Shown: positions 3,893 through 58,051 of the stretch, in pieces
Layout of the letters: each line of letters opens with the position of its first letter
Numbering within the stretch: position 1 is the stretch's first letter
Translations under genes and position numbers: made by a program
Assembly: GCA_016203225.1 (NCBI GenBank)
Contig: JACQNC010000006.1
Span: 72,552-136,551 of the forward strand
Direction of reading: 5' to 3'
DNA length: 64,000 nucleotides
Origin: Candidatus Woesearchaeota archaeon
Lineage (GTDB): Archaea > Nanobdellota > Nanobdellia > Woesearchaeales > ARS49
Notes under the pieces: model-generated
Databases searched by the model: none
What the model was told of the DNA's origin: nothing
The model's input: the letters and a program-made list of their open reading frames with translations, nothing else

Positions 3893-4435
3893 ATGCGCTG
3901 CTTCGGTGACGGCAATCCACTGTACGAACGCTACCACGATGAAGAATGGGGCGTGCCGGTACACAACGACAGGAAGCTGTTCGAGTTCTTGATCCTGGAA
4001 GGCGCGCAGGCAGGCCTGTCCTGGAGCACGATCCTGAAACGAAGAGACGGATACCGGAAAGCGTTCGCGAACTTCGACCCCGCGAAGGTCGCGACGTTCA
4101 CCGACAAGGACGTTCGACGCTTGTTGAAAGACGCCGGCATAATCCGGAACAATCTCAAGATAAGATCCGCGATAACCAACGCGAAAGCATTCCTCGGGAT
4201 CAAGGAAGAGTTCGGCAGTTTCGACTCTTACGTCTGGAAGTTCGTCAACCACAGGCCGATACGCAACGCGGTCAAGCGAGGCGAGTGGCAGGCGACAAGC
4301 GCCGCGTCTGATGCGTTGTCGAAAGACCTGAAGAAACGAGGGTTCAGTTTCGTCGGGAGCACCATAATGTACGCATTCATGCAAGCCATCGGCATGGTCA
4401 ACGACCACGCGATAGATTGCAAAAACTCTAAGTAG
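3893..4435 (+). CDS. tag: DNA-3-methyladenine glycosylase I
   Basis: MRCFGDGNPLYERYHDEEWGVPVHNDRKLFEFLILEGAQAGLSWSTIL is a near-textbook Tag N-terminus. The start was trimmed from 3869, which lies inside the tRNA, to the ATG at 3893. Confidence 0.85.
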   Translation: MRCFGDGNPLYERYHDEEWGVPVHNDRKLFEFLILEGAQAGLSWSTILKRRDGYRKAFANFDPAKVATFTDKDVRRLLKDAGIIRNNLKIRSAITNAKAFLGIKEEFGSFDSYVWKFVNHRPIRNAVKRGEWQATSAASDALSKDLKKRGFSFVGSTIMYAFMQAIGMVNDHAIDCKNSK

Positions 4436-4937
4436 TATACCTGTGCAGATTCAGGAATCCTGCGATGTTGTTCTTCAACTGCAGGATATCGTCCTTGACG
4501 GTCTGCTGGAATCCGCCGGTGAGCGTCTTGTAGACGTACTTGTCATAGACTGTGCGGATGAACATGAACAACGGCTTGCCCTCCCATTTGCCCTCATAAT
4601 CCGTCTCGAGCACGCCCGTGAAAACGAGATGCACCTTGCCCTGGTTCAGGCGCTGTTTCACTCCCTCGGCGCCCTCGACCGTGACATCCTTTATATTGCT
4701 CAACTGGACGCGGATCTTGAGCACGCTCTTCGCGTAATCGGTCAGTTGTTTCGTGGGCTGCAGATCGAGCTCGACGAACTTGCCCTCGGGCTTCGCGCTC
4801 TCGACATGACGCGGCTCGAAACGGTAGTAGCCCTTGTCCAGGAACCACTCGTCTATCAGTCGATACAGCTCTGCGACAGAGAATATACCCTCGTAGTCCA
4901 CGCGTTCCTTGTCCACCACTATCTCCTGCTCGGCCAT
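4428..4937 (-). CDS. uncharacterised protein, paralog 3 of a tandem triplet
   Basis: 169 aa. It shares the layout helix (LYRLIDEWFLDKGY), beta-rich core (KDVTVEG...GVLETDYEGKWEG) and C-terminal helix with the two upstream genes. Confidence 0.7.
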   Translation of the reverse strand: MAEQEIVVDKERVDYEGIFSVAELYRLIDEWFLDKGYYRFEPRHVESAKPEGKFVELDLQPTKQLTDYAKSVLKIRVQLSNIKDVTVEGAEGVKQRLNQGKVHLVFTGVLETDYEGKWEGKPLFMFIRTVYDKYVYKTLTGGFQQTVKDDILQLKNNIAGFLNLHRYTT

Positions 4938-5435
4938 CTAGTGCGCCTCGAACTGCAATGAATCACGGATGAAGCGCTGCAGCTTGAAGATGGTCGTGTG
5001 GACGTTGTCCCAGTAGACGTTCTCGATCGTCTCCTTGATGATGTATTTGTGGTAGAAATCTCTGAGTCCCTCAAGGAACGCGTTGCCCTCAAAACGCTTC
5101 TGGTAATCGAGCTCGACAACCCCTGCGAGCGTCGCCTGTATGCGGCCGTGCTGCATCTTCACCTTCTCCCCATCGCGCACGACCTCCACGTCCTTCATGT
5201 CGGATATCTTGAGCTCGACGTTGATTTTAAACTTTGCGTAGTGCGTCTGTTTGCGCTCGCCGTCCATCTTGACCTCGAGCTCTGCGCCCTCGCCGCCAAC
5301 CTTGTGCTTGTAGGACGGCTCGATGACCTCGTAACCAGCGTCCTGGAGCCAGCCGCGGATCGACGCGAGAAGCTGTTTCAGGTTGAACGGGCCGTAGAAC
5401 TGCGTCACGCTCGGAGGGATCGGGATGTCAGGCAT
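4938..5435 (-). CDS. uncharacterised protein, paralog 2 of a tandem triplet
   Basis: Start trimmed to MPDIPIPP (5435), giving a TGATG overlap with the upstream stop. Motifs are IRGWLQDAGY, KDVEVVRDG and GVVELDYQKRFEG. Its stop directly abuts the next ATG. Confidence 0.7.
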   Translation of the reverse strand: MPDIPIPPSVTQFYGPFNLKQLLASIRGWLQDAGYEVIEPSYKHKVGGEGAELEVKMDGERKQTHYAKFKINVELKISDMKDVEVVRDGEKVKMQHGRIQATLAGVVELDYQKRFEGNAFLEGLRDFYHKYIIKETIENVYWDNVHTTIFKLQRFIRDSLQFEAH

Positions 5436-6043
5436 CAGGTCTGGTCTCGCTTCTGCCACCACTCGCTCAATTCGCGCTCGGGCAGATAGGTCTCTAGCTT
5501 GAGGTACGTCTTGATGGCTTCCTGCAAGCGCTGCATGTCATACTGTATCTGCTTCTCGTGCTGCTTCTGCTTGCCTTTCAGGAAAACCTTGAAAACGAAA
5601 TCGTAGAAGTGCTTGCCCAGCCAGTGCTTCTTGACCTTGCCGCCCGGATCGATGATGATGTTGCACGCCGCGGCGATCTCGACCTCACCCTTGTCCGCCT
5701 TGTACTTCTTGCCGCCGGACACGACCTCGACCTCTTTCTGGCCCAGGATGTGGAAGTCGATATCTAGATCGTACCTGAACAAGCCCTTGTAGCTCTTGAT
5801 GTCCTCCTTGCTCAGACGCCAACGCACGAAGACCTCTGCGCCGATAGGGCGTTCCATGTGCTCGTACAGGATCTCCTTGAAGTCCTCATCAGAACGCGAA
5901 CAGTACCCTTCGTCGGCGAGCCATTCGTGCAGGAGCTTGTACAGGTAAGCCCAGGAATAGACGTCCTTGTAGACGACCGTGAACTTAGCGACCTCTTTTT
6001 TGTCCACGCCCTCGAATCTGAACCTGAGCTCGGGCTCGGCCAT
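5435..6043 (-). CDS. uncharacterised protein, paralog 1 of a tandem triplet
   Basis: 202 aa with LLHEWLADEGY and KEVEVVSGG; more divergent than the other two. It is the first cistron, and a TATA-like box lies about 22 nt upstream of the ATG. Confidence 0.65.
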   Translation of the reverse strand: MAEPELRFRFEGVDKKEVAKFTVVYKDVYSWAYLYKLLHEWLADEGYCSRSDEDFKEILYEHMERPIGAEVFVRWRLSKEDIKSYKGLFRYDLDIDFHILGQKEVEVVSGGKKYKADKGEVEIAAACNIIIDPGGKVKKHWLGKHFYDFVFKVFLKGKQKQHEKQIQYDMQRLQEAIKTYLKLETYLPERELSEWWQKRDQT

Positions 6044-6120: not shown

Positions 6121-7311
6121 ATGCTAATCGGTGTCGTGGGAAAAGCCAACGTGGGAAAATCGACGTTCTTCAAAGCCATGACGCTCGCGGACGTGCTCAT
6201 CGCGAACTATCCTTTCGCGACGATCGACCCGAACAAGGCGTTCGCGTTCGTCCGCATCGACTGCGTCGACACCGAGTTCAAGGTGCAGTGCAACCCTCGC
6301 TTCGGGAGCTGCATCAAGCACCAGCGCTTCGTGCCCGTGGAAGTCATGGACGTCGCCGGCCTCGTGCCAGGCGCACACCTCGGCAAGGGCATGGGGCTCA
6401 CGTTCCTGGACGACCTGCGGCAGGCGGACGCGTTCGTGCACGTCGTCGACATGGCCGGCTCGACAAACGAGAAAGGCGAGCCGGTCGATCCCGGAAGCTA
6501 CGATCCCGCGAACGACATCCGATTCCTCGAAGTCGAACTCGACATGTGGGTGTACGGCATCATCACGAAGGGCTGGGAAAAGACGGCCCGCGCGCTGCAG
6601 CAAGAGAAAGGCGCTGTCGTCAAGGCGCTCGCAAAGCAATTGTCAGGACTTAACATCTCTGAAGGACTTGTCGAGGAAGTAGTGAAGAAACTCAAGCTCA
6701 ACCTCGAGACGCCACAGGAATGGACTCCCGAACAGATAAAGGAACTAGCCGTCATCATGCGCAAGAAGAGCAAGCCAATGATCATCGCGGCGAACAAGAT
6801 GGACCTGCCTACGGCCGACGCGAACCTTGAACGCATCAAGAAAGAATTCCCTGATGCGCTCATCATCCCGACGAGCGCAGAGGCAGAACTGACATTACGA
6901 CAGGCGGCGAAAGCAGGACTGATCGAGTACCTGCCAGGCGACGCCGACTTCACGATAAAAGGAAATTTGAGTCCTAAACAGACCGAGGCGCTCGAATACA
7001 TCCGCGCCGTGCTCAAGAAGTACGGCAACACAGGCGTGCAGAAGGTCCTGAACGCGGCCGTGTTCGAACTCCTGCACTACATGGCGATCTTCCCGGGCGG
7101 CATGAGCAAACTCGCCGACAAGGACGGAAACGTGCTCCCGGACTGTTTCCTGCTGCCGCCGGACTCGACCGCGCTGGATTTCGCGGCGAAGATCCACACC
7201 GACTTGGCCAAGAATTTCATCGCGGCCATGGACGTCAAGACGCGGAGAAAGATCGGCAGAGACACGAAATTGAAGAATCGAGATGTGGTGGAGATACTGA
7301 CAAGTAAATAG
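6121..7311 (+). CDS. Obg/YchF-family P-loop GTPase/ATPase with C-terminal TGS-like domain
   Basis: G1 GKANVGKST, G3 DVAGLV, G4 NKMD, and a C-terminal beta-grasp region ending DVVEILTSK. Confidence 0.8.
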   Translation: MLIGVVGKANVGKSTFFKAMTLADVLIANYPFATIDPNKAFAFVRIDCVDTEFKVQCNPRFGSCIKHQRFVPVEVMDVAGLVPGAHLGKGMGLTFLDDLRQADAFVHVVDMAGSTNEKGEPVDPGSYDPANDIRFLEVELDMWVYGIITKGWEKTARALQQEKGAVVKALAKQLSGLNISEGLVEEVVKKLKLNLETPQEWTPEQIKELAVIMRKKSKPMIIAANKMDLPTADANLERIKKEFPDALIIPTSAEAELTLRQAAKAGLIEYLPGDADFTIKGNLSPKQTEALEYIRAVLKKYGNTGVQKVLNAAVFELLHYMAIFPGGMSKLADKDGNVLPDCFLLPPDSTALDFAAKIHTDLAKNFIAAMDVKTRRKIGRDTKLKNRDVVEILTSK

Positions 7312-8823
7312 TCAGGCTACTTTCACCGTCCCCTCGCTAGCGTCGATCGTCCCAAGATTCTTGTCAACAATAATGAACCCCGTCACGCGGTTCTTGCCGA
7401 GATGCTTCGACTTGTACAATGCACGGTCTGCTTCCTTCAGCATGAAGTCCGGCGACGCTGATGAATTCATGCACGTCACGCATCCGACGCTGATCGTCGT
7501 CTTCCTGTTCGGGAACTCTGTCGCGTCGACAGCGGCCCGAACGCGTTCGGAGACGGCCATCGCGTGCTCGGGCTTCGTCTCGGGAAGGATCACCACGAAC
7601 TCCTCGCCACCATAGCGGCAGCTCGTGTCGATCGTGCCGACGGCTTCGCGCAACACCTCTCCCAGCCGCGCCAACAGCTTGTCGCCTTCAGGGTGACCGT
7701 ACGTGTCGTTGTAGCTCTTGAAGTTGTCCACATCGAAGATGAGCAGGCTGGTGGGCCGCTTGAACTTCGCAGCTCTCGCGACCTCGTTCTTGAACGTCTC
7801 CGTGAAATAGTGCTTGTTGTAAAGTCCGGTGAGTTTGTCGGTCACGGCGGACTCCTGCGCCTGCTTGTACCGCGCTGCCGCAGTGAGTACCATCTCGACG
7901 CGCTTCGCCAGAGCGAGCGCGACCTCCTCGTACGCGCGCAGCTCAGATCCTATCTTGCCATACAGCACCAGCATTCCGCGCGCGACACCATCCCATAGTA
8001 TAGGCACCGCGAGCACGCTGTTCGCCAGTCCGTCAACGCGCGGCAATTGTCCGAGCAGGAAGTCCTTGCGCACGTCCTCGATGAACAACGGCGTCTTCGA
8101 GTTGCTCACGTGCGCCCACAATCCTTCCTCGAGAGCGGAACACGCCTGGTTCCGCGCCTCCAGGTAGGCGAAACGCGCCAAATCCGAACCGTGCCGGACG
8201 CTGCAGTCCTCGAGCTGGAAGGTCTTCATGCAGAAGTTCAGCGTGGTGTTCAAAATCTTGGGAACGTCGAACGTCGCGTTGAGCTGGTTCAAGTAATCGA
8301 AGAGCACGTTCAGTTGCTGTAATTCCTTCCTGTCCTGGCTTATCGCGCTCGCGATGCGCGGCAAGGTCATGGCGAACGTCTCTAGCAAGGCCTTGATCGT
8401 CGCCACCTGCGCTGCCGACTGCTGAGGCAAGTTCGGAGCCTCGTCCACGAGCTCGTCAGGCTCGAGCCCGATGAGCTTCGCTGCCTGCCCCGCGGCCTGG
8501 TCGAGTTGCTGCTCCGAGCGGATGCTCTCAACCACGAGCGCGCCGACCTTGCGGTCCTCGATTATGATGGGCGCCGTGATCGCGTACAGTCCCGCATGGC
8601 AGCTGTCCTGGTACACACCAACGGCATTGTCTGTCCAATCATGCCGGCACAATGTGCAGAACTGGCCACCTTTCTTCATCACGAGCGTGCAGAAGAACGG
8701 GAACTGGCCTGACTGGAATATGATTTTGCCCGTTAGATCCACAGTCACGACAGGCAATCCTATCGTCGCCGACAGCCTGTCCTGCACGAGCTGCCATGTC
8801 TCGGAGTCAACCAAATCCTGCAT
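7312..8823 (-). CDS. PocR-like sensor / GAF-like / GGDEF domain protein (putative diguanylate cyclase)
   Basis: The N-terminus has FPFFCTLVMKKGGQFCTLCRHDW (PocR-type Cys pattern). The C-terminus has LTGLYNKHYF, FDVDNFKSYND and CRYGGEEFVVIL (intact GGEEF). The position where RxxD is expected reads GTID. Confidence 0.8.
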   Translation of the reverse strand: MQDLVDSETWQLVQDRLSATIGLPVVTVDLTGKIIFQSGQFPFFCTLVMKKGGQFCTLCRHDWTDNAVGVYQDSCHAGLYAITAPIIIEDRKVGALVVESIRSEQQLDQAAGQAAKLIGLEPDELVDEAPNLPQQSAAQVATIKALLETFAMTLPRIASAISQDRKELQQLNVLFDYLNQLNATFDVPKILNTTLNFCMKTFQLEDCSVRHGSDLARFAYLEARNQACSALEEGLWAHVSNSKTPLFIEDVRKDFLLGQLPRVDGLANSVLAVPILWDGVARGMLVLYGKIGSELRAYEEVALALAKRVEMVLTAAARYKQAQESAVTDKLTGLYNKHYFTETFKNEVARAAKFKRPTSLLIFDVDNFKSYNDTYGHPEGDKLLARLGEVLREAVGTIDTSCRYGGEEFVVILPETKPEHAMAVSERVRAAVDATEFPNRKTTISVGCVTCMNSSASPDFMLKEADRALYKSKHLGKNRVTGFIIVDKNLGTIDASEGTVKVA

Positions 8824-8845: not shown

Positions 8846-8853
8846 TTTAAAAG
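8846..8853 (-). promoter_or_regulatory. TATA-like box upstream of the GGDEF gene
   Basis: The minus strand reads cttttaaa, 23 nt upstream of the ATG at 8823, inside the 46-nt spacer after the DHH gene. Confidence 0.4.
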
Positions 8854-8869
8854 AATTTAGACAGTCGAG

Positions 8870-9988
8870 TTACAGTCCCGTGAACCCTTCGCGAAGCATC
8901 TTCATAACGCGGTCCTTGAACACCGGATAGTCCTCTGGCCGGCAGCTTCCGCCGGCCGCTGGGACGTGACCGCCGCCGACGGCATCCTTTAAGCCCTTGA
9001 ACCCTTCCTGCAACAGCCGGTTCACTGCGACGTGCTTGTCGCTGCACCGCGCCGAGATCGTCATGCGATCACTATCCACCGCGGACAACAGAACGATAAG
9101 GTGAGGATACTTCAATCCGAGGATCGTGCTGAGCGCGCTCTTGATCCTGTAGTGCGGCTGCACATGATAGAACACGAGCTTCAATTCCGGATGCCACTCG
9201 CCCTTTTGCTCGATCGCCTTCGTGAACGTCTGGATCTCGGCCTCGATCGCTTTATGGTATTTCTTCAGCGGCGAATGCAGCACCTCCTGCGGAGTCGCGC
9301 TCATGAAAACCGTGTCGAAAGCCTGGTCGATATTGTCGGAATTGAATGAGATGGTGTCATTTATGTAGATGCCGACTTTCCCCAGATCGGTCTTGAAGAA
9401 GTCCTTCTTGAGCGCGATATCGTACTTCTTGAACACGCCCTTGATGAAGTCCATCCATGGCTCTGTCGCGATGTCGGTGATGCTGCCTACGGTAGCCACC
9501 CAGTCGCGGTCAGTGAGATTGCAATGCCGCGAGAAAAGGTCGTACGCGAGCTTGCTCGTGCAGTATTTCGCGTAGTCCATGTCGGAGAGATAACGCTGAG
9601 GTTTCATCATGAGGATATTCTTGGCCTTGAACGTGCCGCAGATCGCGTGGTTGTCAATCTCGAGCACGTCCGCGAACGCCGCGAGCTTGTCTACGATGTG
9701 CGCGGTCTCCTCGATGGCGTTGTCGCATGTGATGACTTTCGTCACGCCCGCTCTCTTGAACTTCTTGACATGCTCCTCGGTGATGCCGTAGTTGGAGCGG
9801 TCGTTCGTGAGCCTGACCGTGAGCTGTTTTCCGTGGATGCGTTCGAGCGCGGTCGCGACGAGCGAGCCGGAGCACACGCCGTCTGGATCATCGTCATAGA
9901 ACAAGCCGACCTTATCCTGTGGCGTTATGCCTAGCACGAACCTGTCGAACTGCTCAAGCAGTTCCGGACTAACGACTCGCATCCCCAT
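8870..9988 (-). CDS. DHH/DHHA1 family phosphoesterase (RecJ/GAN- or NrnA-like)
   Basis: FYDDDPDGVCSG (DHH motif II), ITCDNA, EIDNH at the position of the DHH motif, and C-terminal GGGHVPAAG (DHHA1). Confidence 0.75.
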   Translation of the reverse strand: MGMRVVSPELLEQFDRFVLGITPQDKVGLFYDDDPDGVCSGSLVATALERIHGKQLTVRLTNDRSNYGITEEHVKKFKRAGVTKVITCDNAIEETAHIVDKLAAFADVLEIDNHAICGTFKAKNILMMKPQRYLSDMDYAKYCTSKLAYDLFSRHCNLTDRDWVATVGSITDIATEPWMDFIKGVFKKYDIALKKDFFKTDLGKVGIYINDTISFNSDNIDQAFDTVFMSATPQEVLHSPLKKYHKAIEAEIQTFTKAIEQKGEWHPELKLVFYHVQPHYRIKSALSTILGLKYPHLIVLLSAVDSDRMTISARCSDKHVAVNRLLQEGFKGLKDAVGGGHVPAAGGSCRPEDYPVFKDRVMKMLREGFTGL

Positions 9989-11474: not shown

Positions 11475-11849
11475 TCACTTCTTCCGCTTCATCGCGGCAG
11501 GGATGTCTATCATGTATTTCCCTTCGGAGAGCTTGAATATCAACGGTTCCTGACTGAACAGCTTCACCAGGTCGAGCTCGTACTTGCCCGGCGCGAGCAT
11601 GCGGATGCTCTCGAAGTCCAGCACGACCGGATCCGAGCGCTGCAGTCCGAGCATGGAGTACACGTCCTGCTCCATCTGGAACTTCTGCTCCTTCGAGAGC
11701 AGCAACACCTCTTCCTGGTGTTTCTTGATAGCCTCGTAACGTTCCTGTCGGAGGAAAAAGAACATCTTGCCGCCGCACGCGCAACCGTTCAACAGTTCAG
11801 GGGCGGCGTCAGGGTAGAAGGTGCTGCACCGGACGCACTGATGCGGCAT
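11475..11849 (-). CDS. Zn-ribbon protein (OapC-like)
   Basis: 124 aa with CVRC...CACGG four-Cys ribbon at the N-terminus. It is the last gene of the GTPase/DUF2073/Zn-ribbon triad. Confidence 0.65.
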   Translation of the reverse strand: MPHQCVRCSTFYPDAAPELLNGCACGGKMFFFLRQERYEAIKKHQEEVLLLSKEQKFQMEQDVYSMLGLQRSDPVVLDFESIRMLAPGKYELDLVKLFSQEPLIFKLSEGKYMIDIPAAMKRKK

Positions 11850-11851
11850 AC

Positions 11852-12220
11852 CTATTTCCGCCGCTTCTTACCCTCGTTGGTAAGGAGCTCGATCTTGTGC
11901 GGATCCTTCTTGATCTTCTTCACTACGCTCGCAGGACCGACGACCGTCAAACCGGCGCGATTGCCCAGCACGAAACTCGCGACTCCGTCGAACAACCCGC
12001 CGCCCTGCATCGGATTGATCACAGCCAGTTCGATGCCGCGGAATTCCTTGTTGATCTCCTCCATCGTCGCCTTGATGAGCTCTGTCTCCTCCTCTTTCTG
12101 GAGCCTACCTTGGAGGAGCACGATCTTGTTCTGCTTTGCGATGTTCAGGATCTTCCTGATGCGGCCGATGCTGCTCAACGACGAGATCTCGGAGTAAGGG
12201 AGGAGTTGGATCGTGACCAT
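11852..12220 (-). CDS. DUF2073-like protein (OapB-like)
   Basis: 122 aa, 2-3 nt from both neighbours. Position and size match the middle gene of the conserved archaeal triad. The family assignment is from memory, not a search. Confidence 0.55.
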   Translation of the reverse strand: MVTIQLLPYSEISSLSSIGRIRKILNIAKQNKIVLLQGRLQKEEETELIKATMEEINKEFRGIELAVINPMQGGGLFDGVASFVLGNRAGLTVVGPASVVKKIKKDPHKIELLTNEGKKRRK

Positions 12221-12223: not shown

Positions 12224-12853
12224 TCACCTCTTGGCCAGCTTGAACAGCGTCTCGTAGAAGTCATCCATGTTCTTGCCAGTCCTGGCGGAGATGCCGACGA
12301 TGTCATACTGCGGGAACGCCGCCTCGACGCGCTTCATCTTCGCGCGGCGCAGGTCGATCTTGTTGGCGACGACAACGACGGGGATGTCGCGCGCCTGCAG
12401 GTTCCCCAGGATCGTCACGTTGACCTGGCTGAACGGGTCCTGCGTCGCATCGAGCACCACACACACCGTATCCACCTCATCGAGCCACTTGATGGCCTCG
12501 ATCACTCCTTTCGTGGCCTCGCGGGCGCGCTTCTTGGCGGACTTCTCTGTCATGCCATGCTTGAGGAAATCCTCATAATCTATGCGCGTCGCGATGCCTG
12601 GCGTGTCGACGAGGTTGAACTGCAGTTCCTTGCCGTCCTTGCTCTTGATGACGACGCTCTCCTTCTGCTGGATCTCGCGCGTCTCGTGCGGGATCGGAGA
12701 CACGGTTCCGAGATCCTGGTCGAGCCAGTCCTTGCATATCCTGTTCGCGAGCGTGGTCTTGCCAGAGTTAGGCGGGCCGTACAAACCGAGCTTGAAGTTC
12801 TTGCGTACCCCCCAGAAGTTGAACGAGAACAGGTTCTTCAGCCACTTCAGCAT
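12224..12853 (-). CDS. small P-loop GTPase (OapA-like)
   Basis: G1 GPPNSGKTT, G3 DTPG, G4 NKID; 209 aa. Confidence 0.8.
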   Translation of the reverse strand: MLKWLKNLFSFNFWGVRKNFKLGLYGPPNSGKTTLANRICKDWLDQDLGTVSPIPHETREIQQKESVVIKSKDGKELQFNLVDTPGIATRIDYEDFLKHGMTEKSAKKRAREATKGVIEAIKWLDEVDTVCVVLDATQDPFSQVNVTILGNLQARDIPVVVVANKIDLRRAKMKRVEAAFPQYDIVGISARTGKNMDDFYETLFKLAKR

Positions 12854-12963: not shown

Positions 12964-13191
12964 TTACGCGCGAGCCATCTTTGCGCGCGAGATATCGCCG
13001 CTCTTGTCGATGAAGTAGAGGTATCCGACCTGCTTCTTCACGCCGACCTTTGCGACCTTCTCGGGCTTGCCCTTCGCGCCCTTCTTGCGGCCACGGGCCA
13101 TCTTTGCACGCGAGACGTCTCCGCTCTTGTCAACGAAATACAAGAAGCCTCCCTGTTTCTTAACGCCAACTTTCGCAACCTTTTCTGCCAT
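12964..13191 (-). CDS. small basic protein with an internal duplication
   Basis: Trimmed to MAEKVAKVG (GGAGGGTG lies 5 nt upstream). Two near-identical 30-aa units read EKVAKVGVKKQ-G-[FY]LYF[VI]DKSGD[VI]SRAKMAR. Confidence 0.6.
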   Translation of the reverse strand: MAEKVAKVGVKKQGGFLYFVDKSGDVSRAKMARGRKKGAKGKPEKVAKVGVKKQVGYLYFIDKSGDISRAKMARA

Positions 13192-13318
13192 GCAGCACCC
13201 TCCTTTTTCGGTGTCTTTTCGAAGATCGGGAAAAACCCTGTTCCCCCATTCCGTCGAGAAATCGAGGTTGTTTATAAAACTTTCGAAGGGGCGTTTTCCG
13301 GCCACCGACGGGAAAACG

Positions 13319-13525
13319 TCACTTGCGGCGCTTCGCGGCAGGCTTTTTCCGTCGTGGCTTCGCGTCACGCGTGAACCATGCGCGCTTCAGCAACCGTGAC
13401 GCGGATGTCGCATTCTCCATGTCTTTCGAGTACTGCCGCGCGAGCTGCTCATCTGTGCCGATATCCTGCTCCTCGAGACGTTTCGCGTCCGCGAGCGCCT
13501 TGTCGACGACCTCTTTTTTCGGCAT
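13319..13525 (-). CDS. small hypothetical protein with a Lys/Arg-rich tail
   Basis: Trimmed to MPKKEVVDKAL. A TATA-like box at 13545-13557 lies about 25 nt upstream. The C-terminus is KPRRKKPAAKRRK. Confidence 0.45.
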   Translation of the reverse strand: MPKKEVVDKALADAKRLEEQDIGTDEQLARQYSKDMENATSASRLLKRAWFTRDAKPRRKKPAAKRRK

Positions 13526-13610
13526 ACGCGCTTCGTCGTTTGCGCGATATAAAAGACTTATGGTGTGCACTGGCTAAAATCTTAAATAACGCGCGTCCGA
13601 CGGGAAAACC

Positions 13611-15119
13611 ATGACCAAGGGGATGGTGGTATCAGGCGGATTCGGCGGAATCCTCGTCCGCGAGAAGGCAGACGCCGCGCTCGAGCTCGGCGAACTCCTA
13701 ATCGCGTCGACGCCGGACGGAACCATCGTGCTGCACGTGTTCGACCTCGTGTATGGCTCGCAATTGAGCCAACAACACCTCGAACTCATCTCGGGCCTCA
13801 AGCTCGAAGAGGACGAATCCTTGAACCTTATGGACCCGCACCTGCGCACGTACGTCCTTGCGAAAGCGAAAGGGCTCGTGCGTGTCACGGGAAACACGGC
13901 CGTCGCGTGCAAGAGCCTGCCGTCGATGTTCGCGAGCGTCCGCGAGATCAAACCCGAGGACATCACGTTCCTCACCAAGCCAGCCACGCCCTTGTTCGTC
14001 GGCAGACTCCGTTCGGGAAGCAAGGTCCTCGACGTCCCCATCTTCCTGCCCGGCAAAGACGTCCTGAGCCATCACATCCTGATCTCCGCCACGACAGGGA
14101 AGGGCAAGAGCAATCTCGCGTATTGCATGCTCTGGGACCTGTGCGGCAGGGACTACGCTGGAGTGCTCGTGCTCGACCCGCATGACGAGTATTACGGCAG
14201 GAACCGGCCAGGCCTGAAAGACCACGCGGACAGAGAAAAGGTGGTCTATTATTCCCCTGACCCTATGCCCGGCGGGCGCTCGCTCAAGCTCAACCTCGAT
14301 CTCATCCAGCCGCACCACTTCGACGGCGTCGTGCCGTGGAGCGACGCGCAACGCGAATGCCTCATGGCATACTGGAAACGCCACCAGACCGCGTGGATCC
14401 CGCAACTGCTCCTAGGCGACGTGCTGCCGGGATTCATGGACGGGACGATCGCTGTTGTCCGCAGACGGCTGCAGCAACTGCTCGACATCCAATCCCGGGA
14501 CGGCGAACTCGTCGCGAGCGGCGTGTTCGACCTGCACGCGGGCAAGACGACAGTCGCAGACATCGCCAAGGACCTCGAGCAGGCGAGGATCGTCATCATC
14601 GACACTAGCTCATTCTCAGGCCAGGCAGAACTCCTGATAGGCAGCGTCATCGCGACCGAGACTTTGCATCGCGCGAAGCACGCGAAGCAGGATGGCACGC
14701 TGAAGGAAAAGCCAGTCATAAGCATCGTGCTCGAGGAGGCTCCGAGAGTGCTCGGCAAGGACGTGCTCGAGCGCGGCAGCAACGTCTTCAGCACCATCGC
14801 GCGCGAAGGCAGGAAGTTCAAGGTCGGACTCGTCGCCATCACGCAGCTACCGTCGCTCATCCCGCGCGACATCCTGGCCAACATCAACACCAAGATCATC
14901 CTCGGCACCGAGATGAAACCCGAACGCCAGGCGCTAATCGAGAGCGCGGCTCAGGACCTCTCCGACGACGACCGCACAATCGCGAGCCTCGACAAAGGCG
15001 AGGCGCTCATCACGAGCACGTTCGCCACGTTCGCGACGCCGATCAAGATCCCGTTGTTCGAGGAGATCATAAAGCCAGCCACAAAGACGGCGAAGAAGGA
15101 CTTCGGCGGGATGACATGA
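13611..15119 (+). CDS. herA: HerA-type (DUF87) hexameric ATPase/helicase
   Basis: N-terminal barrel-like region, Walker [10 protein letters not shown], Walker [11 protein letters not shown], and an ATGA overlap with mre11. Confidence 0.8.
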
Positions 15120-16321: not shown

Positions 16322-17183
16322 GCCACGCCAACTTCTTGGGTTTTCCGAGCTTCTTCGACCACGTATTGACGAGCTCGCGATATGTGTTCACGTGCAGCCA
16401 ACGATTGCTGTGCAGGCACTTGACCTCCACACCGTCCCGCAAGAACTCCACGAAGAGCATGATGCGCTTGTCGATCACGCGCTGCTTGCTGTACACCCGC
16501 TGCGCGTGCCTTGAAGGATCGCCGAACAGCAACACCTCGAACGGACGCTCTGTCCTGCGCGTGCGCGTGAAGAAATCATGCCGTATGTGCTCGAGCCTAC
16601 GCTTGATCACCTTGCGTTTCTTGAACGCGAGCAGCGCGGCGATGACGAGCACCGCGAACACCGTGCCTATCACGATGTCGACCTTGCGGAACCACACGAC
16701 GAACCCCGGCAACAACGCGCCTAACCAGAATCCAAGGAAAACCATCACAGGCACCCAGATGATGGCCGCGAGCGTGTCCCAGAAAAGGAAGTCCCGCACA
16801 GGCATCCTAGTGGCGCCTGCGGCTATCGGGAAGAACACGCGCACGCCCGCGAGGAACCGCGAGACGAACACGGTCTTGCTGCCGTGGCGCTCGAAGTGGT
16901 ACTCGACGCGCCTGAACTTGTCCTTCGCGAGCAGCTTCCTCAGACGCTTGCCATGATGGCTGCCTATCCAGTAACCGAGCAAGTCACCTGCGAGCACGCC
17001 GATGAAACTGATGAGAACTGCGCCCCAGACGTTCATGTAGCCTAGCGACGAGACGTACCCGGCGACGAGCAGGATGATCTCCTCGGGGAACGGGACGCCG
17101 ACGCTTCCGATGAGCAGCAGGATGACGATCGCCACATAGGACAGCTGCTCGATGTACGAGATGAAGAAATCGACGAGCGCCAT
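16290..17183 (-). CDS. DedA/VTT-family membrane protein with a C-terminal soluble extension of about 100 aa
   Basis: GVPFPEEIILLVAGY plus multiple TM helices, followed by a basic non-membrane tail. The 3' end overlaps the mre11 3' end by 32 nt (convergent). Confidence 0.75.
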   Translation of the reverse strand: MALVDFFISYIEQLSYVAIVILLLIGSVGVPFPEEIILLVAGYVSSLGYMNVWGAVLISFIGVLAGDLLGYWIGSHHGKRLRKLLAKDKFRRVEYHFERHGSKTVFVSRFLAGVRVFFPIAAGATRMPVRDFLFWDTLAAIIWVPVMVFLGFWLGALLPGFVVWFRKVDIVIGTVFAVLVIAALLAFKKRKVIKRRLEHIRHDFFTRTRRTERPFEVLLFGDPSRHAQRVYSKQRVIDKRIMLFVEFLRDGVEVKCLHSNRWLHVNTYRELVNTWSKKLGKPKKLAWPRTGSVARRS

Positions 17184-18481
17184 CAGGGGGTGCTTCGCTT
17201 GATCGTGCGCGGGAACGGGATCGCGTCACGGATGCTGTCCAGCTTGCAGATCCAGCGCACCACTCGCTCGATGCCGAGCCCGAAACCGGAGTGCGGCACG
17301 CTGCCATACCTGCGCAGGTCCAAGTACCAGTCGTAATGTTCTATCTTCTCGCCGGCCTTCTTCAGCTTTTCTATCAGGATATTGACATCCGTCTCGCGCT
17401 CTGAGCTGCCGATTATCTCGCCGAAGCCCTCCGGCGCGAGCACGTCGCAGCACTTCACGACGCGCGGATCGTCAGGGTCGTCCTTCATGTAGAACGCCTT
17501 GATCTCCTTCGGATAACCCGTGACCCACAACGGCTTGTCATAATGCTTCACGAGCGCCTCTTCCTCGATTGTGCGCAGATCCTTGCCCCACGGGATGTCG
17601 ATGCCATCCTTGTGCAGCATCTTGATGGCTTCCGTGTACGTGATGCGCGGGAACGGCGCCTTGATCTTCTCGATATCGCGGTAGTCGCGGCCGAGAAGCT
17701 TGAGCTCCTCGCGGCAGTGCTTGGCGACATGCTGACAGATGGCCGTTATGAGCCCTTGCTCGAACTCGACCAGCCCTTCGAAATCCATCCACGCCTCTTC
17801 GCCCTCGAGGTGCCAGTATTCAGTCAGGTGTCGATTGGTCTTGCTCGGCTCGGCGCGGAACGATGGCGTGAGCGCCCAGACCTTCTCCAGCGAGAAAATC
17901 ATGGCTTCGAGATAGAGCTGCGCGCTCTGGCTGAGGAACGCGTCCTCGCCGAAGTAGTCGATGTGGAACAACGTGCTTCCGCCCTCGCAGGAACTTCCGG
18001 TGATGATGGGCGGAGTCACTTCGAAGTAGCCTTTTGTCGCGAAATAGTCGCGGCACGCCTTCAGGACTTCCGCCTTGACCTTCCAGACGGTCGTGAGCTC
18101 GCGGCTCCTGATCCAGAGGTGGCGCTTGTCGAGCAGGTCCTCTGTCGACTGGTCCTTCGTGATTGGGAAGCGCTCCGCCTTGTGGACGAGCTTGAAATCA
18201 TCCACCTCGACCTCGAAACCCGTCGGCGCGCGCTTGTCCTCCTTCAACGTTCCTGATAACTCGACCGCGCTCTCTATAAGGACGCTCTCCGCCTGTTCCC
18301 AGAGCTTCGGCGAGACCTTCTCCTTCTTGACGACGCACTGGATGATGCTCGTCCTGTCGCGCAGAACGATGAAAGCGAAGGCGTTGCTCTTGCGTTCGCG
18401 ATAGACCCAGCCGCGCAGATGCACTTTTCCTTTACCCTTTTCGATGGCTTCTTGGACGGTGATGAATTCCATGGCGCTCAT
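17183..18481 (-). CDS. asnS: asparaginyl-tRNA synthetase
   Basis: Class IIb with an N-terminal OB fold, FRAEPSKTNRHLTEYWHLEGEEAW, and GFGLGIERVVRWICKLDSIRDAIPFPRT. Confidence 0.8.
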   Translation of the reverse strand: MSAMEFITVQEAIEKGKGKVHLRGWVYRERKSNAFAFIVLRDRTSIIQCVVKKEKVSPKLWEQAESVLIESAVELSGTLKEDKRAPTGFEVEVDDFKLVHKAERFPITKDQSTEDLLDKRHLWIRSRELTTVWKVKAEVLKACRDYFATKGYFEVTPPIITGSSCEGGSTLFHIDYFGEDAFLSQSAQLYLEAMIFSLEKVWALTPSFRAEPSKTNRHLTEYWHLEGEEAWMDFEGLVEFEQGLITAICQHVAKHCREELKLLGRDYRDIEKIKAPFPRITYTEAIKMLHKDGIDIPWGKDLRTIEEEALVKHYDKPLWVTGYPKEIKAFYMKDDPDDPRVVKCCDVLAPEGFGEIIGSSERETDVNILIEKLKKAGEKIEHYDWYLDLRRYGSVPHSGFGLGIERVVRWICKLDSIRDAIPFPRTIKRSTP

Positions 18482-18524: not shown

Positions 18525-18635
18525 CGCCCTCCGCCAGATTTGAACTGGCGACCTTGTGGTTTCAGCCGACGTTCATCGGCAGACCCGACGAATCGGTAAC
18601 AGCCACACGCTCTAACCGGGCTGAGCTAGGAGGGC
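18525..18635 (-). tRNA. tRNA-Asn (anticodon GTT) with a 36-nt intron at canonical 37/38
   Basis: Exon 1 is 18597-18635, the intron 18561-18596 and exon 2 18525-18560. Acceptor GCCCTCC/GGAGGGC, T-arm GCCAG-TTCAAAT-CTGGC, spliced loop CTGTTAA. A relaxed bulge-helix-bulge can be drawn (3-nt bulge, 4 bp with one U-U, 3-nt bulge). Confidence 0.75.
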
Positions 18636-19195: not shown

Positions 19196-20503
19196 TTACG
19201 GAACGACGCGTTCAGGATCGCGCGGGAAGAGGCACGCCTCGCGGATGTTCTCGAGGTTCAACAGCTTCATCGTGAGCCGGTCGATGCCCAGCCCGAAACC
19301 GCCATGCGGCGGCGCGCCGTACTTGAACGGCATCGTGTAGAAGTCGAACGTCTTGAGCACGAGCCCCTTGCCCTCGATCTGCTTGCACAGCACAGGATAT
19401 CTGTGTTCGCGCTGGCCTCCTGAGACTAGTTCGGTGCCACGATACTCGAAGTCGAATCCGCGCGAGACGCCGTTGTCGTTCATGATGTAGAACGCTCGCT
19501 GACTGGAGGGATACTTCGTGATGAAATAAGCGTCGGTCTTGAACTTCTTCCTGATGAGCTCGCCGAGTTTCTTCTCCTCTTCGATGCCGAGGTCGAAGTC
19601 AGGCGGAAGTTTCGCGCCCTCCTCGTTCAGTAGCTCGATAGCCTTGGCGACAGTGATGCGCGGGAAAGGCAATGTCGGGACGTCTATAGTCACACCGAGC
19701 ATGCGCAGTTGTTCCTGGCAAAGCTCGTTGACCGTCGTGCATACGTGAACGAAAAGGCGCTCGAGGAATCCCAGCACGTCATCCTCGTCGTTGATGAAGG
19801 ACATCTCGAAATCGATCTGCGTGAACTCCGTGAAGTGCCGCATCGTGTGGGACTTCTCCGCCCGGAACGAGGGGCCGATCTCGAAGACCTTCTCGAAACC
19901 CGCGATCAGCATCATCTGCTTGTACAACTGCTGCGATTGCGAGAGATACGCCTTCTTGTCATAATACACAACTGGGAACAGCGTCGCGCCGCCTTCGGCG
20001 CCCTGCGAGATTATCTTCGGCGTCTGCATCTCGATCACGCCCTCCTTCATCATGAATTGGCGCACGGCCCAGTTGACCATGCTACGCACCTTGAAGATCG
20101 CGAGGTTGCGCGGATTCCGCAAGTCCAGGAAGCGATTATCAAGCCGCTTGTCCAAAGACGTGGGGATCGTGCCGGAGATGTCAATAGGCAGGTTCGGGTC
20201 GGACGCAGAAAGGACCTCGAGGTCGTGCAGGACGACCTCCTTCGCGCCGGACTTCTGCTTGCCCGTCTGGACCTTGCCGTGAACCGAGACGACAGACTCC
20301 TTGGGGATATCCTTCAAGGTCGCGAACTGCTTGAAGTCCTGCAAAGCAGTGAGCTGCACGAATCCTTCGCGGTCGCGCAGCTTGATGAACGCTATCTTAC
20401 CGAGGTTCCTGATGTCCGCGGCCCAGCCGGCCAAGACGACATCGTCGCCCTCGGCGCGATGCTGCACCTGGTTCGTGAAGATGCGCTTGTGCAGGTCGAT
20501 CAT
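19196..20503 (-). CDS. aspS: aspartyl-tRNA synthetase (archaeal type)
   Basis: FRAEKSHTMRHFTEFTQIDFEMSF, GGQREHRY, and HGGFGLGIDRLTMKLLNLENIREACLFPRD. Confidence 0.85.
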   Translation of the reverse strand: MIDLHKRIFTNQVQHRAEGDDVVLAGWAADIRNLGKIAFIKLRDREGFVQLTALQDFKQFATLKDIPKESVVSVHGKVQTGKQKSGAKEVVLHDLEVLSASDPNLPIDISGTIPTSLDKRLDNRFLDLRNPRNLAIFKVRSMVNWAVRQFMMKEGVIEMQTPKIISQGAEGGATLFPVVYYDKKAYLSQSQQLYKQMMLIAGFEKVFEIGPSFRAEKSHTMRHFTEFTQIDFEMSFINDEDDVLGFLERLFVHVCTTVNELCQEQLRMLGVTIDVPTLPFPRITVAKAIELLNEEGAKLPPDFDLGIEEEKKLGELIRKKFKTDAYFITKYPSSQRAFYIMNDNGVSRGFDFEYRGTELVSGGQREHRYPVLCKQIEGKGLVLKTFDFYTMPFKYGAPPHGGFGLGIDRLTMKLLNLENIREACLFPRDPERVVP

Positions 20504-21216: not shown

Positions 21217-21789
21217 ATGGCTCAGACTGTGCTCGGCAACGTGCTAGATTTCTTCGCCCGCATAGGTATCTACGATGTCGTTTTGCCGTTCATCCTCGTG
21301 TTCACCATCGTATACGCGATCCTTGAACGCACACGCGTGTTCGGCACAGAGAAGATCGATGGCAAGGAATACACAAAGCGCAACCTGAACGCCATGACCG
21401 CGTTCGTGATAGGCTTCCTAGTCATCGCGTCAAGCAAGTTGGTCGAAACCATCACCAGCGTGTCCAGCAACGTCGTCGTACTGTTACTGTTGGGCGTGTT
21501 CTTCCTGATGCTCGTCGGCAGCTTCTACGCCCAAGGCGAGATCGGCGAGAAAGGCGTATCGGGCTGGATCAAGACTGTCTTCATAATCATCATGCTCGTC
21601 GGGATCATCGCGATCTTCATGAACGCGCTCAAGACCGACTCCGGCCAGACCTGGCTCGACTACAGCCTCGGCTACCTCTCGGCCAACTGGAGCTCGACCG
21701 CAGTCGCGAGCATCATTCTCATCATCCTGGTGGTCCTATTCATCTGGGGGCTCACACGAGAGGGCGGCAAGAAAGAGGAGAAGAAATAG
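21217..21789 (+). CDS. multi-pass membrane protein, paralog 1 of a tandem triplet
   Basis: The N-terminus FFARIGIYDVVLPFILVFTIVYAILERTRVFG is shared with the next two genes. About 5 hydrophobic segments. Confidence 0.7.
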   Translation: MAQTVLGNVLDFFARIGIYDVVLPFILVFTIVYAILERTRVFGTEKIDGKEYTKRNLNAMTAFVIGFLVIASSKLVETITSVSSNVVVLLLLGVFFLMLVGSFYAQGEIGEKGVSGWIKTVFIIIMLVGIIAIFMNALKTDSGQTWLDYSLGYLSANWSSTAVASIILIILVVLFIWGLTREGGKKEEKK

Positions 21790-21798
21790 AGGTGCACC

Positions 21799-22377
21799 AT
21801 GCCTGTTGACTTCGCAAACGCATTCAGCTTCCTTGACCAGTTCGGCATAACCGACATCCTCCTTCCGTTCGTTCTCATCTTCACGATAGTCTATGCCGTG
21901 TTGGCGAAGATCAAGCTGTTCGGCGAAGAGAGCAAGAAATACAACCTCATAATCGCGTTGGGCATCTCCCTGTTGGCCATAATCCCGCACGCCACGGGCA
22001 GATACCAGGAATTCGACATCGTCAACGTCATAAACGCCAGCCTGCCGCAGGTAGCGCTCATCCTAATCGCGATCGTCGTGCTAATGGTCCTCATCGGGCT
22101 CGTGGGCGGCGGCGCGCCAGGCACGAGCAGCATCATCCTCGGCATCGCCGGGCTCATAGGAGTCATCCTGCTAATCATCGTGTTCTGGCGCGCGCTGTTC
22201 CCATACAGCACGCCTTCGTGGCTGAGCTTCCTCGACGATCCAAGCACACAAGCTCTGCTCATCATCCTGGTAGTGTTCGGACTCATCGTCTGGTTCGTCA
22301 CGAAAGAACCGGGCAAACCGGGCGAAGGCACAAAAGCGGCACAGGAGTTCTTCAAAGCCATGTTCGGAGGCAAATGA
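21799..22377 (+). CDS. multi-pass membrane protein, paralog 2
   Basis: FLDQFGITDILLPFVLIFTIVYAVLAKIKLFG; same length class (192 aa). Confidence 0.7.
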   Translation: MPVDFANAFSFLDQFGITDILLPFVLIFTIVYAVLAKIKLFGEESKKYNLIIALGISLLAIIPHATGRYQEFDIVNVINASLPQVALILIAIVVLMVLIGLVGGGAPGTSSIILGIAGLIGVILLIIVFWRALFPYSTPSWLSFLDDPSTQALLIILVVFGLIVWFVTKEPGKPGEGTKAAQEFFKAMFGGK

Positions 22378-22935
22378 ATGGCCACTCCGCTCGACATCGG
22401 GCTGCTGCAGAACTTCAGCATAATCTTCCCGTTCCTGCTGGTGCTCGTGTTCGTCTACGGCGTCCTGAGCATGACGAAGATCTTCGGTGACAACAAGGGC
22501 GTGTACGCGTTCCTGGCGTTCATCCTGGCAGTGAGCACGCTCTTCAGCCCCATCGCCATCAAGACGATCAACCTCATGGCGCCCTGGTTCGTGCTTCTGT
22601 TCATATTCAGCATCTTCCTGCTAATCGCGTACCAGACTTTCGGCATCAAGGAGGAGAGCATCCTTAAGACCATCACGAGCAAGGACCACGGAGACACGTT
22701 CTTCTACTGGGTCCTGTTCCTTGTCCTCGCGATAGGGCTCGGATCCCTTAGCTTCGTCGTCTCTGAAGAACGCGGATTCAAGGCCCTCGCCGAGCAGAAC
22801 GAGACCGGCGCGGTCCAGCAAGGCACGGAACAGACAGGGTTCTGGCAGACCCTCTTCCATCCCAAGATCCTAGGCATGATACTCATCATGCTGATCGCGG
22901 TGTTCACGGTCAAACAATTGGCAAGCTACAAGTGA
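22378..22935 (+). CDS. multi-pass membrane protein, paralog 3
   Basis: NFSIIFPFLLVLVFVYGVLSMTKIFG. It starts 1 nt after the previous stop. Confidence 0.7.
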   Translation: MATPLDIGLLQNFSIIFPFLLVLVFVYGVLSMTKIFGDNKGVYAFLAFILAVSTLFSPIAIKTINLMAPWFVLLFIFSIFLLIAYQTFGIKEESILKTITSKDHGDTFFYWVLFLVLAIGLGSLSFVVSEERGFKALAEQNETGAVQQGTEQTGFWQTLFHPKILGMILIMLIAVFTVKQLASYK

Positions 22936-22936
22936 C

Positions 22937-43219: not shown

Positions 43220-43223
43220 TGCG

Positions 43224-53761: not shown

Positions 53762-54231
53762 GAACTCGCCTCGGTATACACGATAAGCATGTTGCTCCCA
53801 TCAGGCAACGGAAGCTGCGCGGTCGCTGTCTTTTTATCCTTTGCAGTCACTTCGGAACCTACTTCGAGAGGAAAAAGCGCAGGACCGCCTCGCGCGGGCA
53901 ACACAACGCGAAGCTGACGCGGACTCTGCGATGGGATCTGCGCAAGGAATGCCTCCATTTGCTGTTTGATAATGACCTGATTGTCATTCATGACCTCAAA
54001 CGCTAGCAGTTCCGCGAAAGGCACTTTGTCGCCACCCATATCCACGGTTTGCCGCAGATAAGCTGCGAGAACAGATTCAGCTGCCGAGCCGTGCACGGAC
54101 GTGAGCGGCGTGTACGCCTCATCTTTGGCGAAACTCTGGAAAACGAACATCAGTATCACCGTGAACAACAGCACCGCCCACGACATGATGATGATCAATT
54201 GGCGCGCCAGGATCTGTCCTTTGGAGTTCAT
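53758..54231 (-). CDS. pilin-like protein
   Basis: The N-terminus is MNSKGQILARQLIIIMSWAVLLFTVILMFVF. ATGA overlaps on both sides. Confidence 0.6.
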   Translation of the reverse strand: MNSKGQILARQLIIIMSWAVLLFTVILMFVFQSFAKDEAYTPLTSVHGSAAESVLAAYLRQTVDMGGDKVPFAELLAFEVMNDNQVIIKQQMEAFLAQIPSQSPRQLRVVLPARGGPALFPLEVGSEVTAKDKKTATAQLPLPDGSNMLIVYTEASS

Positions 54232-57605: not shown

Positions 57606-57611
57606 GAGTCA

Positions 57612-58049: not shown

Positions 58050-58051
58050 CG

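Follow-up and report, generated by a model that had tools for sequence, protein, structure and literature searches.

This study concerns a 503-aa protein with the domain order PocR-GAF-GGDEF, encoded on the reverse (-) strand at 7312..8823 of a stretch of 64,000 nucleotides from Candidatus Woesearchaeota archaeon (contig JACQNC010000006.1, positions 72,552 to 136,551), hereafter the window. Judged from its sequence and its predicted structure, the protein is most likely a GTP-specific diguanylate cyclase (DGC) under the control of its N-terminal modules. We put the probability that it is an active, sensor-regulated synthase of cyclic di-GMP (c-di-GMP) at about 75%. The gene is almost certainly native to this archaeon, and vertical inheritance in the Woesearchaeal (DPANN) lineage is the best explanation. 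An earlier note on this DNA stated that c-di-GMP signalling is regarded as a bacterial trait and that no archaeal DGC has been characterised, and the literature agrees (PMC10249747, PMC5847659, PMC10086821).

The coding sequence runs from an ATG at 8823..8821 to a TGA at 7314..7312, and the start codon is supported by orthologues beginning with MQDLVD or MRDLVD. All parts of the gene given below lie on the (-) strand. The GGDEF, PocR and GAF models all scored above their curated cut-offs, and the domain order read earlier from the sequence was confirmed with Pfam and NCBIfam. The PocR sensory domain (PF10114) covers residues 3-154 (8362..8817) with E 2.7e-22 (79.7 bits vs a cut-off of 23.9), and NCBIfam gives a weak PocR match to the 503-aa protein (E 7e-6). 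The GAF domain covers residues about 187-310 (7894..8265). It was matched by GAF_2 (PF13185, residues 189-308, E 4.7e-9, 37 bits vs 28.6) and by GAF (PF01590, E 7.7e-6, 26.9 bits vs a cut-off of 22.4). The GGDEF catalytic domain covers residues 326-479 (7387..7848). Its match spans positions 1-161 of the 161 in PF00990 with E 5.3e-43 (147 bits vs 23.8). TIGR00254 of NCBIfam gives E 1.3e-48 (164.8 bits vs a cut-off of 37.4), and PleD (1w25) was retrieved by the domain in a PDB sequence search with E 2e-31.

The motifs FDVDNFKSYND, CRYGGEEF and GTID, together with FPFFCTLVMKKGGQFCTLCRHDW (Cys45/56/59), were all confirmed by translation. The metal/substrate segment DVDNFKSYNDTYGHPEGD is located at 7681..7734 and the A-site GGEEF at 7597..7611 (residues 405-409, with R403 before it). 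Thus, the claim of an intact GGEEF with its upstream FDVDNFKSYND is borne out by translation and by alignment to PleD. In the alignment to 1w25, D364 is the counterpart of the metal-binding Asp327, and N372 and D381 are the counterparts of N335 and D344, which specify guanine. R403, the phosphate-binding Arg before GGEEF, and K473, the C-terminal Lys, align with R366 and K442. D364, N372, D381, R403, GGEEF and K473 are invariant in 22 aligned relatives with 30-94% identity. GG[D/E]EF is kept by all 120 listed homologues, in one of them as GGEEV. The position equivalent to D344 of PleD is Asp in 119 of the 120, the exception being P0084 with Asn. The Hypr subclass of GGDEF, which synthesises cyclic GMP-AMP (cGAMP), has Ser at this position; since D381 is Asp, the protein does not belong to that subclass.

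The AlphaFold2 (AF2) model of the whole protein has a mean predicted local distance difference test score (pLDDT) of 88.6. Its predicted template modelling score (pTM) is 0.47, because the three domains are flexibly linked. In a Foldseek search, the GGDEF domain of the model superposes on 3ign with a template modelling score (TM) of 0.91 and a root-mean-square deviation of 1.6 A; PleD, WspR and DgcZ are further matches of the fold. The closest whole-chain structures are the sensor/coiled-coil/GGDEF enzymes 5llw (E 2.9e-23) and 4zmu (E 1.9e-18).

The primary I-site is degenerate. GTID (residues 396-399, 7627..7638) aligns to R359-A-I-D362 of PleD, and the product-inhibition motif RxxD, which stands five residues before GG[D/E]EF, is not matched there. 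With Gly396 in place of Arg, the primary I-site probably does not mediate allosteric product inhibition in this protein. The earlier prediction that product inhibition is lost is reasonable on this ground, but it applies only to this sublineage. In the family alignment, the Arg is missing throughout the close clade of the query, whereas the distant archaeal orthologues P0023, P0024, P0028, P0029 and P0039 keep RxxD. By subgroup, many compact and about 330-aa members carry RxxD, the about 440-aa class carries PKxA/S, and the query clade carries GxxD. Members with RxxD occupy the same locus (L012, L178, L179, L180 and L181); therefore, the loss of Arg in the query sublineage would most simply be a secondary event.

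A lineage-specific C-terminal tail, IIVDKNLGTIDA (residues 484-495, 7339..7374), directly follows the GGDEF domain. Its consensus is [IVL][IVM]VDK[NS]L ('IVDKNL'), and AF2 predicts a beta-strand near it at residues 480-485. The tail was counted with the regular expression [IVLMF][IVLM][IVLM][DN][KRSQ][NSD]L. It was found in 54 of P0001-P0083 and in 0 of P0084-P0120, the 37 bacterial-type homologues. In the best 150 profile matches described below, it was present in 28 of 79 compact representatives and in 0 of 71 long ones.

The surroundings of the gene are archaeal. About 58 genes of the window were scanned with Pfam. The archaeal set includes OapB and OapC with a small GTPase, HerA (DUF87) adjoining an Mre11-type phosphoesterase, an RFC-type clamp-loader subunit, RadA, RPA, an SSB-like OB-fold protein and translin. 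The earlier statement that unmistakably archaeal genes flank the gene on both sides therefore stands, with a YchF-related GTPase on one side and OapB/OapC, HerA-Mre11, RFC, RadA and RPA also in the window. RadA of the window is 84-88% identical to that of Candidatus Woesearchaeota and Candidatus Nanoarchaeia genomes, and the window is from a Woesearchaeal (DPANN) archaeon.

In principle, the gene could stem from bacterial contamination or from a chimeric join, or it could have been acquired horizontally very recently and be non-functional. GGDEF is overwhelmingly bacterial, and bacterial PocR-GAF-GGDEF proteins exist (Nitrospiria L094, Deferrisomatales P0113). Moreover, the close homologues include one with the label 'Candidatus Binatia bacterium' and others with the label 'uncultured Methanosarcinales'. 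However, the metagenome-assembled genomes (MAGs) behind these labels, titled 'uncultured Methanosarcinales archaeon' and 'Candidatus Binatia bacterium SMAG_U15746', match the RadA of the window equally well (85-88%). They are DATILO01 (L003/L018), CAYIEN01 (L005/L013), CAZJXP01 (L009/L016) and CAYHVU01 (L015/L175). As they carry this RadA as well as the GGDEF orthologue, the labels are mis-assigned, and they were rejected as evidence of a bacterial or methanogen origin. In addition, two contigs from separate sequencing runs (SRR12113384 and SRR12113383) encode an identical protein. Both contigs have the gene order OapB-OapC-PhoU-DHH-GGDEF-YchF, with the same junctions, which excludes a chimeric join peculiar to one assembly. 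The codon-position GC of the gene (0.59/0.39/0.80) is similar to that of its neighbours, and its codon log-odds of 0.30 per codon lie inside the range of the window. Compared with orthologues of 75-76% identity, the ratio of nonsynonymous to synonymous substitution rates (dN/dS) is 0.08-0.13 for the GGDEF gene, 0.08-0.09 for YchF and 0.12-0.21 for the DHH gene, all approximate because dS is near saturation. Native codon usage, a dN/dS of about 0.1, a conserved archaeal promoter element and archaeal surroundings in every context down to 31% identity leave the contaminant or recent-acquisition explanation effectively refuted. The opinion that the gene is not a mis-assembled bacterial fragment is thus upheld by two independent contigs and 11 archaeal contexts.

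The 11 contexts comprise the window and ten relatives, with identities from 75% to about 31% and in three size classes. The proteins of about 490-530 aa are P0005 (969 kb contig), P0014, P0017, P0028 (1.3 Mb contig), P0023, P0024, P0126 and P0134, and the smaller classes are represented by P0030 (328 aa) and P0048 (441 aa). The neighbourhood is archaeal in all 11. A convergent YchF-type GTPase lies 0-2 genes downstream in 10 of the 11, and the eleventh contig stops there. The OapB/OapC block with the small GTPase is found upstream in 8 of 11 (in L012, OapC only). A PhoU-like gene and a DHH/DHHA1 gene are each present in 6 of 11. These data indicate that the GGDEF gene is a positional orthologue that was kept through the diversification of the lineage. 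Because the position is conserved across the lineage, any transfer from bacteria must be old and precede that diversification. For one lineage, the locus removes the doubt about contamination that has surrounded archaeal GGDEF proteins. A second, GGDEF-only gene was observed in the Oap/DHH/YchF block of L012 (6832-7881, 349 aa) and of L180 (3484-4569, 361 aa). No second GGDEF copy was found in the 64-kb window by tblastn.

The gene boundaries and the promoter were also compared. The TGA stop of the GGDEF gene directly touches the TAG stop of the convergent YchF-type gene (7312 / 7311), so the zero spacer seen previously is correct. On the other side, a B recognition element (BRE)/TATA-like promoter element, AAATTCTTTTAAA (8846..8858, (-)), ends 22 nt before the ATG. 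It contains TTTTAAA at 8852..8846, within a 46-nt upstream spacer. The earlier note had placed a TATA box 23 nt upstream; a TATA-like element is indeed there and is conserved, but the distance is 22 nt. The same element is equally placed in the orthologous loci L003, L004, L005, L009 and L175. It persists there despite divergence of the flanking sequence and, in L009, a different upstream gene. The distant loci L011, L176 and L177 have TATA-like boxes at an equal distance from the start. In the window, an A/T box was found 15-35 nt before the start (mode 23-24) in 11 of 40 genes with spacers, vs 1% of random positions. A box at this distance is the usual archaeal promoter/leaderless arrangement. 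Since AAATTCTTTTAAA ends 22 nt before the ATG, its placement implies a presumably leaderless or near-leaderless mRNA.

The protein belongs to a large archaeal family. In a word-indexed search, about 80 archaeal-type clusters were listed ahead of the first bacterial-type architecture. An exhaustive profile search of 1.84 billion 50%-identity representatives gave 654,301 generic GGDEF matches. The best 150 of these consist of 79 compact proteins (<=535 aa) and 71 long multi-GAF proteins. Most of the 79 compact representatives are 460-530 aa long and were matched end to end, and the family accordingly has at least 79 compact representatives at 50% identity. The sensor part differs among members, which have PocR-GAF, GAF-only or unrecognised N-termini. 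The N-terminal-only alignment (A3) yielded one narrow pattern and 3 loci, so that the number of GTDB species known to carry the gene, 5 close ones, is a minimum. NCBI automatic annotation names relatives 'diguanylate cyclase [Candidatus Woesearchaeota archaeon]'. A neighbour-joining (NJ) tree built on the GGDEF domain has a single split with 79 of the 80 archaeal-type sequences on the same side. This suggests a single origin of the archaeal-type GGDEF, which is not claimed as shown because the strict bootstrap for their monophyly is poor (7/200, domain only). The 440-aa class (182/200) and the close clade (139/200) received higher values.

Several points weigh against the explanation as a native, vertically inherited gene for a sensor-regulated c-di-GMP synthase. 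Some GGDEF domains that look intact are inactive or serve other roles. The dN/dS values are rough and the bootstrap is low, as given above. With Pfam and regular expressions, the 64-kb window yielded neither domains nor motifs of EAL, HD-GYP, PilZ or MshEN, and Rfam at its gathering thresholds gave no c-di-GMP riboswitch. In the roughly 15 kb contexts of the relatives, precomputed Pfam annotation likewise contains no EAL, HD-GYP, PilZ or MshEN, and no c-di-GMP riboswitch was seen there either. A complete signalling module is therefore not demonstrated. Furthermore, c-di-GMP and pGpG were undetected in the archaea examined, none of them DPANN (PMC8646023, PMC10249747).

In a rival reading, the GGDEF domain is structurally intact and the protein is not a synthase of c-di-GMP as a messenger. 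It would instead make another product (3',3'-cGAMP, c-di-AMP or linear pppGpG), serve as a GTP-binding sensor or scaffold, or have no more than residual activity. The lack of a partner phosphodiesterase (PDE) or receptor domain in the window and in the relatives' contexts fits this reading. So do the lineage-specific C-terminal tail and the fact that c-di-GMP has never been detected in archaea (PMC10249747). However, residue 381 is Asp, where Hypr enzymes have Ser, and N372 is kept as well. GGEEF and all residues for metal, phosphate and transition state stay unchanged across relatives of 30-94% identity, as would be expected of a working DGC. We therefore consider a different product or function unlikely and prefer a c-di-GMP synthase.

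The presence of GGDEF proteins in DPANN is not new, because Braun et al. 2021 and NCBI automatic annotation already record it. In one sentence, Braun et al. 2021 mention >300 putative archaeal GGDEF proteins found by BLAST, many of them in Asgard or DPANN archaea, and the same study found no c-di-GMP or pGpG in Haloferax volcanii and Sulfolobus acidocaldarius (PMC8646023). The archaeal GGDEF proteins named earlier are CAJ37382 of Methanocella arvoryzae and an inactive REC-GGDEF protein of 'Ca. Micrarchaeum' (PMC5847659, PMC8646023). Galperin et al. treated contamination as an open possibility for bacterial-type regulators of archaeal MAGs. Romling 2022 wrote of GGDEF proteins that their presence on archaeal contigs 'needs to be confirmed' (PMC10086821), and a 2023 review states that c-di-GMP was not detected in archaea (PMC10249747). 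Reviews up to 2023 also describe DGCs as almost exclusively bacterial. No paper was found on this family, its synteny or any archaeal DGC activity. In contrast to the earlier reports, which were unvalidated and left contamination open, the present gene has intact residues, synteny, a promoter and purifying selection. The present analysis adds evidence of a genuinely archaeal gene that is old, conserved and under selection. The archaeal subfamily, with its distinctive tail and fixed chromosomal position, is also described here.

Among known enzymes, PleD is the reference: the GGDEF domain of the archaeal protein is about 35% identical to that of PleD from Caulobacter crescentus (1w25/2v0n), with the catalytic residues and the fold in common. 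PleD is bacterial, receives its input through REC-REC phosphorylation, has RAID (RxxD) at the I-site and lacks the IVDKNL tail, whereas the archaeal protein has a PocR-GAF input, GTID and the tail. The phytochrome-activated DGC of Idiomarina (5llw/6et7) and Dcsbis of P. aeruginosa (4zmu) likewise combine PAS/GAF-type sensors, a long helix and GGDEF. However, identity to the 5llw and 4zmu enzymes is only 18-25%, and the archaeal sensor, a PocR domain that carries a Cys/His cluster, lacks a bilin site. By analogy, the sensor-helix-GGDEF layout shared with 5llw and 4zmu would imply dimeric signalling through the helix register. The nearest bacterial architectures, those of Deferrisomatales P0113 (759 aa) and Nitrospiria L094, share the three Pfam domains and their order, and L094 is 34% identical over residues 1-483. 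The bacterial proteins of this architecture among the listed homologues differ in having 711-759 aa, with about 230-260 extra N-terminal residues before GGDEF; RxxD is kept and the tail is absent. PocR of Salmonella, an AraC-type sensor of 1,2-propanediol, and MtaR share the PF10114 ligand-binding domain family, but their output is a DNA-binding helix-turn-helix domain and not GGDEF.

The PocR domain holds a cluster formed by Cys45, Cys56, (Cys59) and Cys75-His76 (8596..8691), which is a candidate metal, redox or cofactor site. C45, C56 and C75 are invariant or at least 90% kept among family members of 30-94% identity, and CHAGL is conserved; C59 varies. The conservation of Cys45, Cys56 and Cys75-His76 therefore suggests such a site. 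PocR domains are described as sensors of small hydrocarbon derivatives (PMC13602510) and have been found in archaeal histidine kinases (PMC6944256). When modelled alone with AF2, the PocR domain has a GAF/PAS-like alpha/beta fold with pLDDT 93.9 and pTM 0.88. Foldseek matches of this model are weak (TM <= 0.49) and fall on ligand-binding GAF/PAS/LOV/IclR-type domains. The PDB sequence search gave no solved PocR relative. As there is no solved relative by sequence and the fold matches are weak, no cofactor was deduced from homology. A profile of the N-terminal region retrieves the GAF structures 5w10 (E 5.5e-6) and 3ci6. AF2 predicts a long helix from GAF to GGDEF at residues 295-327 (7843..7941), presumed to be a signalling helix or a dimeric coiled-coil linker, and a second long helix at residues 137-182.

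We believe that the protein works as a cytoplasmic one-component sensor DGC. Its gene would use an archaeal BRE/TATA promoter of its own and give a leaderless mRNA. By analogy with solved enzymes, the protein would dimerise along the long helices 137-182 and 295-327. The pocket around Cys45/Cys56/Cys75-His76 of PocR, possibly with GAF, may perceive a small ligand or a redox/metal signal. Such a signal would shift the register of the helical linker, so that the two GGDEF half-sites are joined or kept apart. Each half-site would bind one GTP, and both together would form c-di-GMP. With Arg changed to Gly at the I-site, the output would probably be set by the sensor alone, free of allosteric product inhibition.

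The earlier note had also proposed a type-IV-pilus-like machine, pilins and GT2 polysaccharide synthases as outputs of c-di-GMP. The genes are present: a T2SSE-type ATPase of 756 aa recognised by Pfam (24326-26596, (+)), pilin-like genes with class III signal peptides read from their N-terminal sequences (52868-60377, (-)) and two GT2 genes recognised by Pfam (41879-44468). However, a search of the pilus ATPase, the pilins and the GT2 genes for PilZ and MshEN, as domains or as motifs, gave nothing. Their link to c-di-GMP was set aside as unsupported, which does not disprove it.

The pilus-like machine also enters into another reading, in which the enzyme is active and its product acts mainly between organisms. 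An episymbiotic DPANN archaeon would use it to manipulate a bacterial or archaeal host or neighbour, or would respond to host cues. The small size of Woesearchaeal genomes (0.97-1.3 Mb contigs) and the absence of canonical intracellular receptors or PDEs nearby in the 64-kb window agree with this, and the machine and the pilin island could mediate attachment. However, the proposal is purely speculative. Neither a signal peptide nor a transmembrane segment is present in the protein, which AF2 models as soluble and three-domained. No exporter is linked to the GGDEF gene, and 64 kb without receptors tell little about the genome as a whole. We regard an inter-organism role as highly unlikely, and an intracellular, sensor-regulated cyclase is preferred.

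Some further observations were made on the pilus genes. The N-terminal region of about 425 aa of the T2SSE-type ATPase matches no Pfam family, and the run it begins (24326-28767, (+)) continues with a 735-aa protein that has no Pfam match. Before it lie four genes of about 190 aa (21217-23524, (+)), also without a Pfam match. Three of the four have hydrophobic N-terminal segments and no canonical class III signal peptide. The products of the pilin island start with MKRGF..., MNSKGQ... or ...SKAQ..., which is class III and prepilin-like. The G+C content of the island is 0.52-0.54 vs 0.57-0.59, and its codon scores are weak; the island is possibly recently acquired or fast-evolving.

Taken jointly, the data allow a wider reading, which we hold tentatively and at somewhat below even odds. 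In this reading, c-di-GMP signalling would be an old, vertically inherited and independent archaeal core network of Woesearchaeal archaea. The GGDEF locus might have become fixed next to the YchF-type GTPase, within the origin-proximal oap/herA neighbourhood. The sensor and the feedback site (RxxD, GxxD, PKxA) might have diversified while the IVDKNL tail was acquired. Receptors and turnover enzymes might lie outside the bacterial PilZ/EAL/HD-GYP set; each of these parts is put forward with the same reserve. Such a network is possibly tied to host attachment or to replication/cell-cycle control. A 2025 paper reports that the c-di-AMP cyclase DacZ is absent from DPANN, and GGDEF may therefore be the only cyclic-dinucleotide synthase of DPANN (PMC12699388). 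A soluble 503-aa protein with all catalytic residues makes the question of whether Archaea use c-di-GMP testable. If the protein is active, the range of c-di-GMP extends to a second domain of life, and the missing receptors and PDEs of very small genomes become the next question. It would also offer a handle on environmental sensing by ultra-small symbiotic archaea.

The immediate neighbours of the gene are as follows. The YchF-related GTPase (6121..7311, (+)), with a YGR210-like G4 and a TGS domain, matches NF007171 / PRK09602 with 550.7 bits vs 387. It is the most conserved neighbour of the GGDEF gene, which is conserved context only. OapC (11475-11849, (-)) and OapB (11852-12220, (-)) were recognised by Pfam PF09845/PF09846. 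The small GTPase (12224-12853, (-)), also a Pfam match, forms an origin-associated block with them. At 4428-6043 (-), in divergent orientation to the YchF-type gene, there are three genes in a row, of 169, 174 and 202 aa, with no Pfam match. In L009, L176, L177, L178 and L180, YchF is likewise followed by several unannotated genes of about 165-215 aa, so that these genes are a conserved block adjoining the GGDEF/YchF pair.

Upstream of the GGDEF gene and on the same strand lies a gene for a 372-aa phosphoesterase with Pfam DHH and DHHA1 domains (8870..9988, (-)). The protein is RecJ-like (TIGR00644, recJ N-terminus, E 3e-17; PDB 8y30, RecJ, E 4e-5). It keeps motifs I, II and IV and GGGH. Motif III is DNH in the window, L003 and L004, and canonical DHH in the distant orthologues L005, L009, L010, L011 and L176. 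The protein could be a replication-associated nuclease, which fits the origin-associated neighbourhood; alternatively, it could be a nanoRNase-type enzyme that removes pGpG. As a dedicated PDE partner of the cyclase it is retained as no more than a possibility, since it is RecJ-like, its gene is inverted in L009 and absent in L012, and the GGDEF gene has its own promoter.

Other features of the window were noted. Between the small GTPase and herA (13611-15119), an origin recognition box (ORB)-like 13-mer, CCGNCGRGAAAWC, occurs three times, at 13251, 13305 and 13597; two of the copies are identical, and inverted GGCGTTTTCCG-type partners lie close by (13251-13609). In the whole window, 6 matches were found with 1 mismatch allowed, vs 2.0 expected, and 2 of 100 shuffles reach 6. 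No GC-skew switch was seen. Because the origin-associated oapB/oapC adjoin these repeats, 13251-13609 may be a replication origin. At 12964-13368 (-), there is a 100-nt direct repeat with 76% identity and 123-nt spacing. At the protein level, it corresponds to a basic unit of about 41 aa (EKVAKVGVKKQxGxLYFxDKSGDxSRAKMAR) duplicated in tandem, with no Pfam match. In relatives, two small genes (68 and 75 aa) occupy this position.

A DUF4344 putative metallopeptidase gene (46957-47916, (-)) lies in the lowest-GC kilobase of the window (0.495). Its codon score is atypical (12 for 319 codons), and it is a candidate horizontally acquired gene. A 111-nt tRNA at 18525-18635 (-) was detected by Rfam (54 bits) and not called by ARAGORN. 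It is located between class II tRNA-synt_2 paralogues (17183-18481 and 19196-20503), beside a gene with a YbaK-type editing domain, and is most likely an intron-containing archaeal tRNA.

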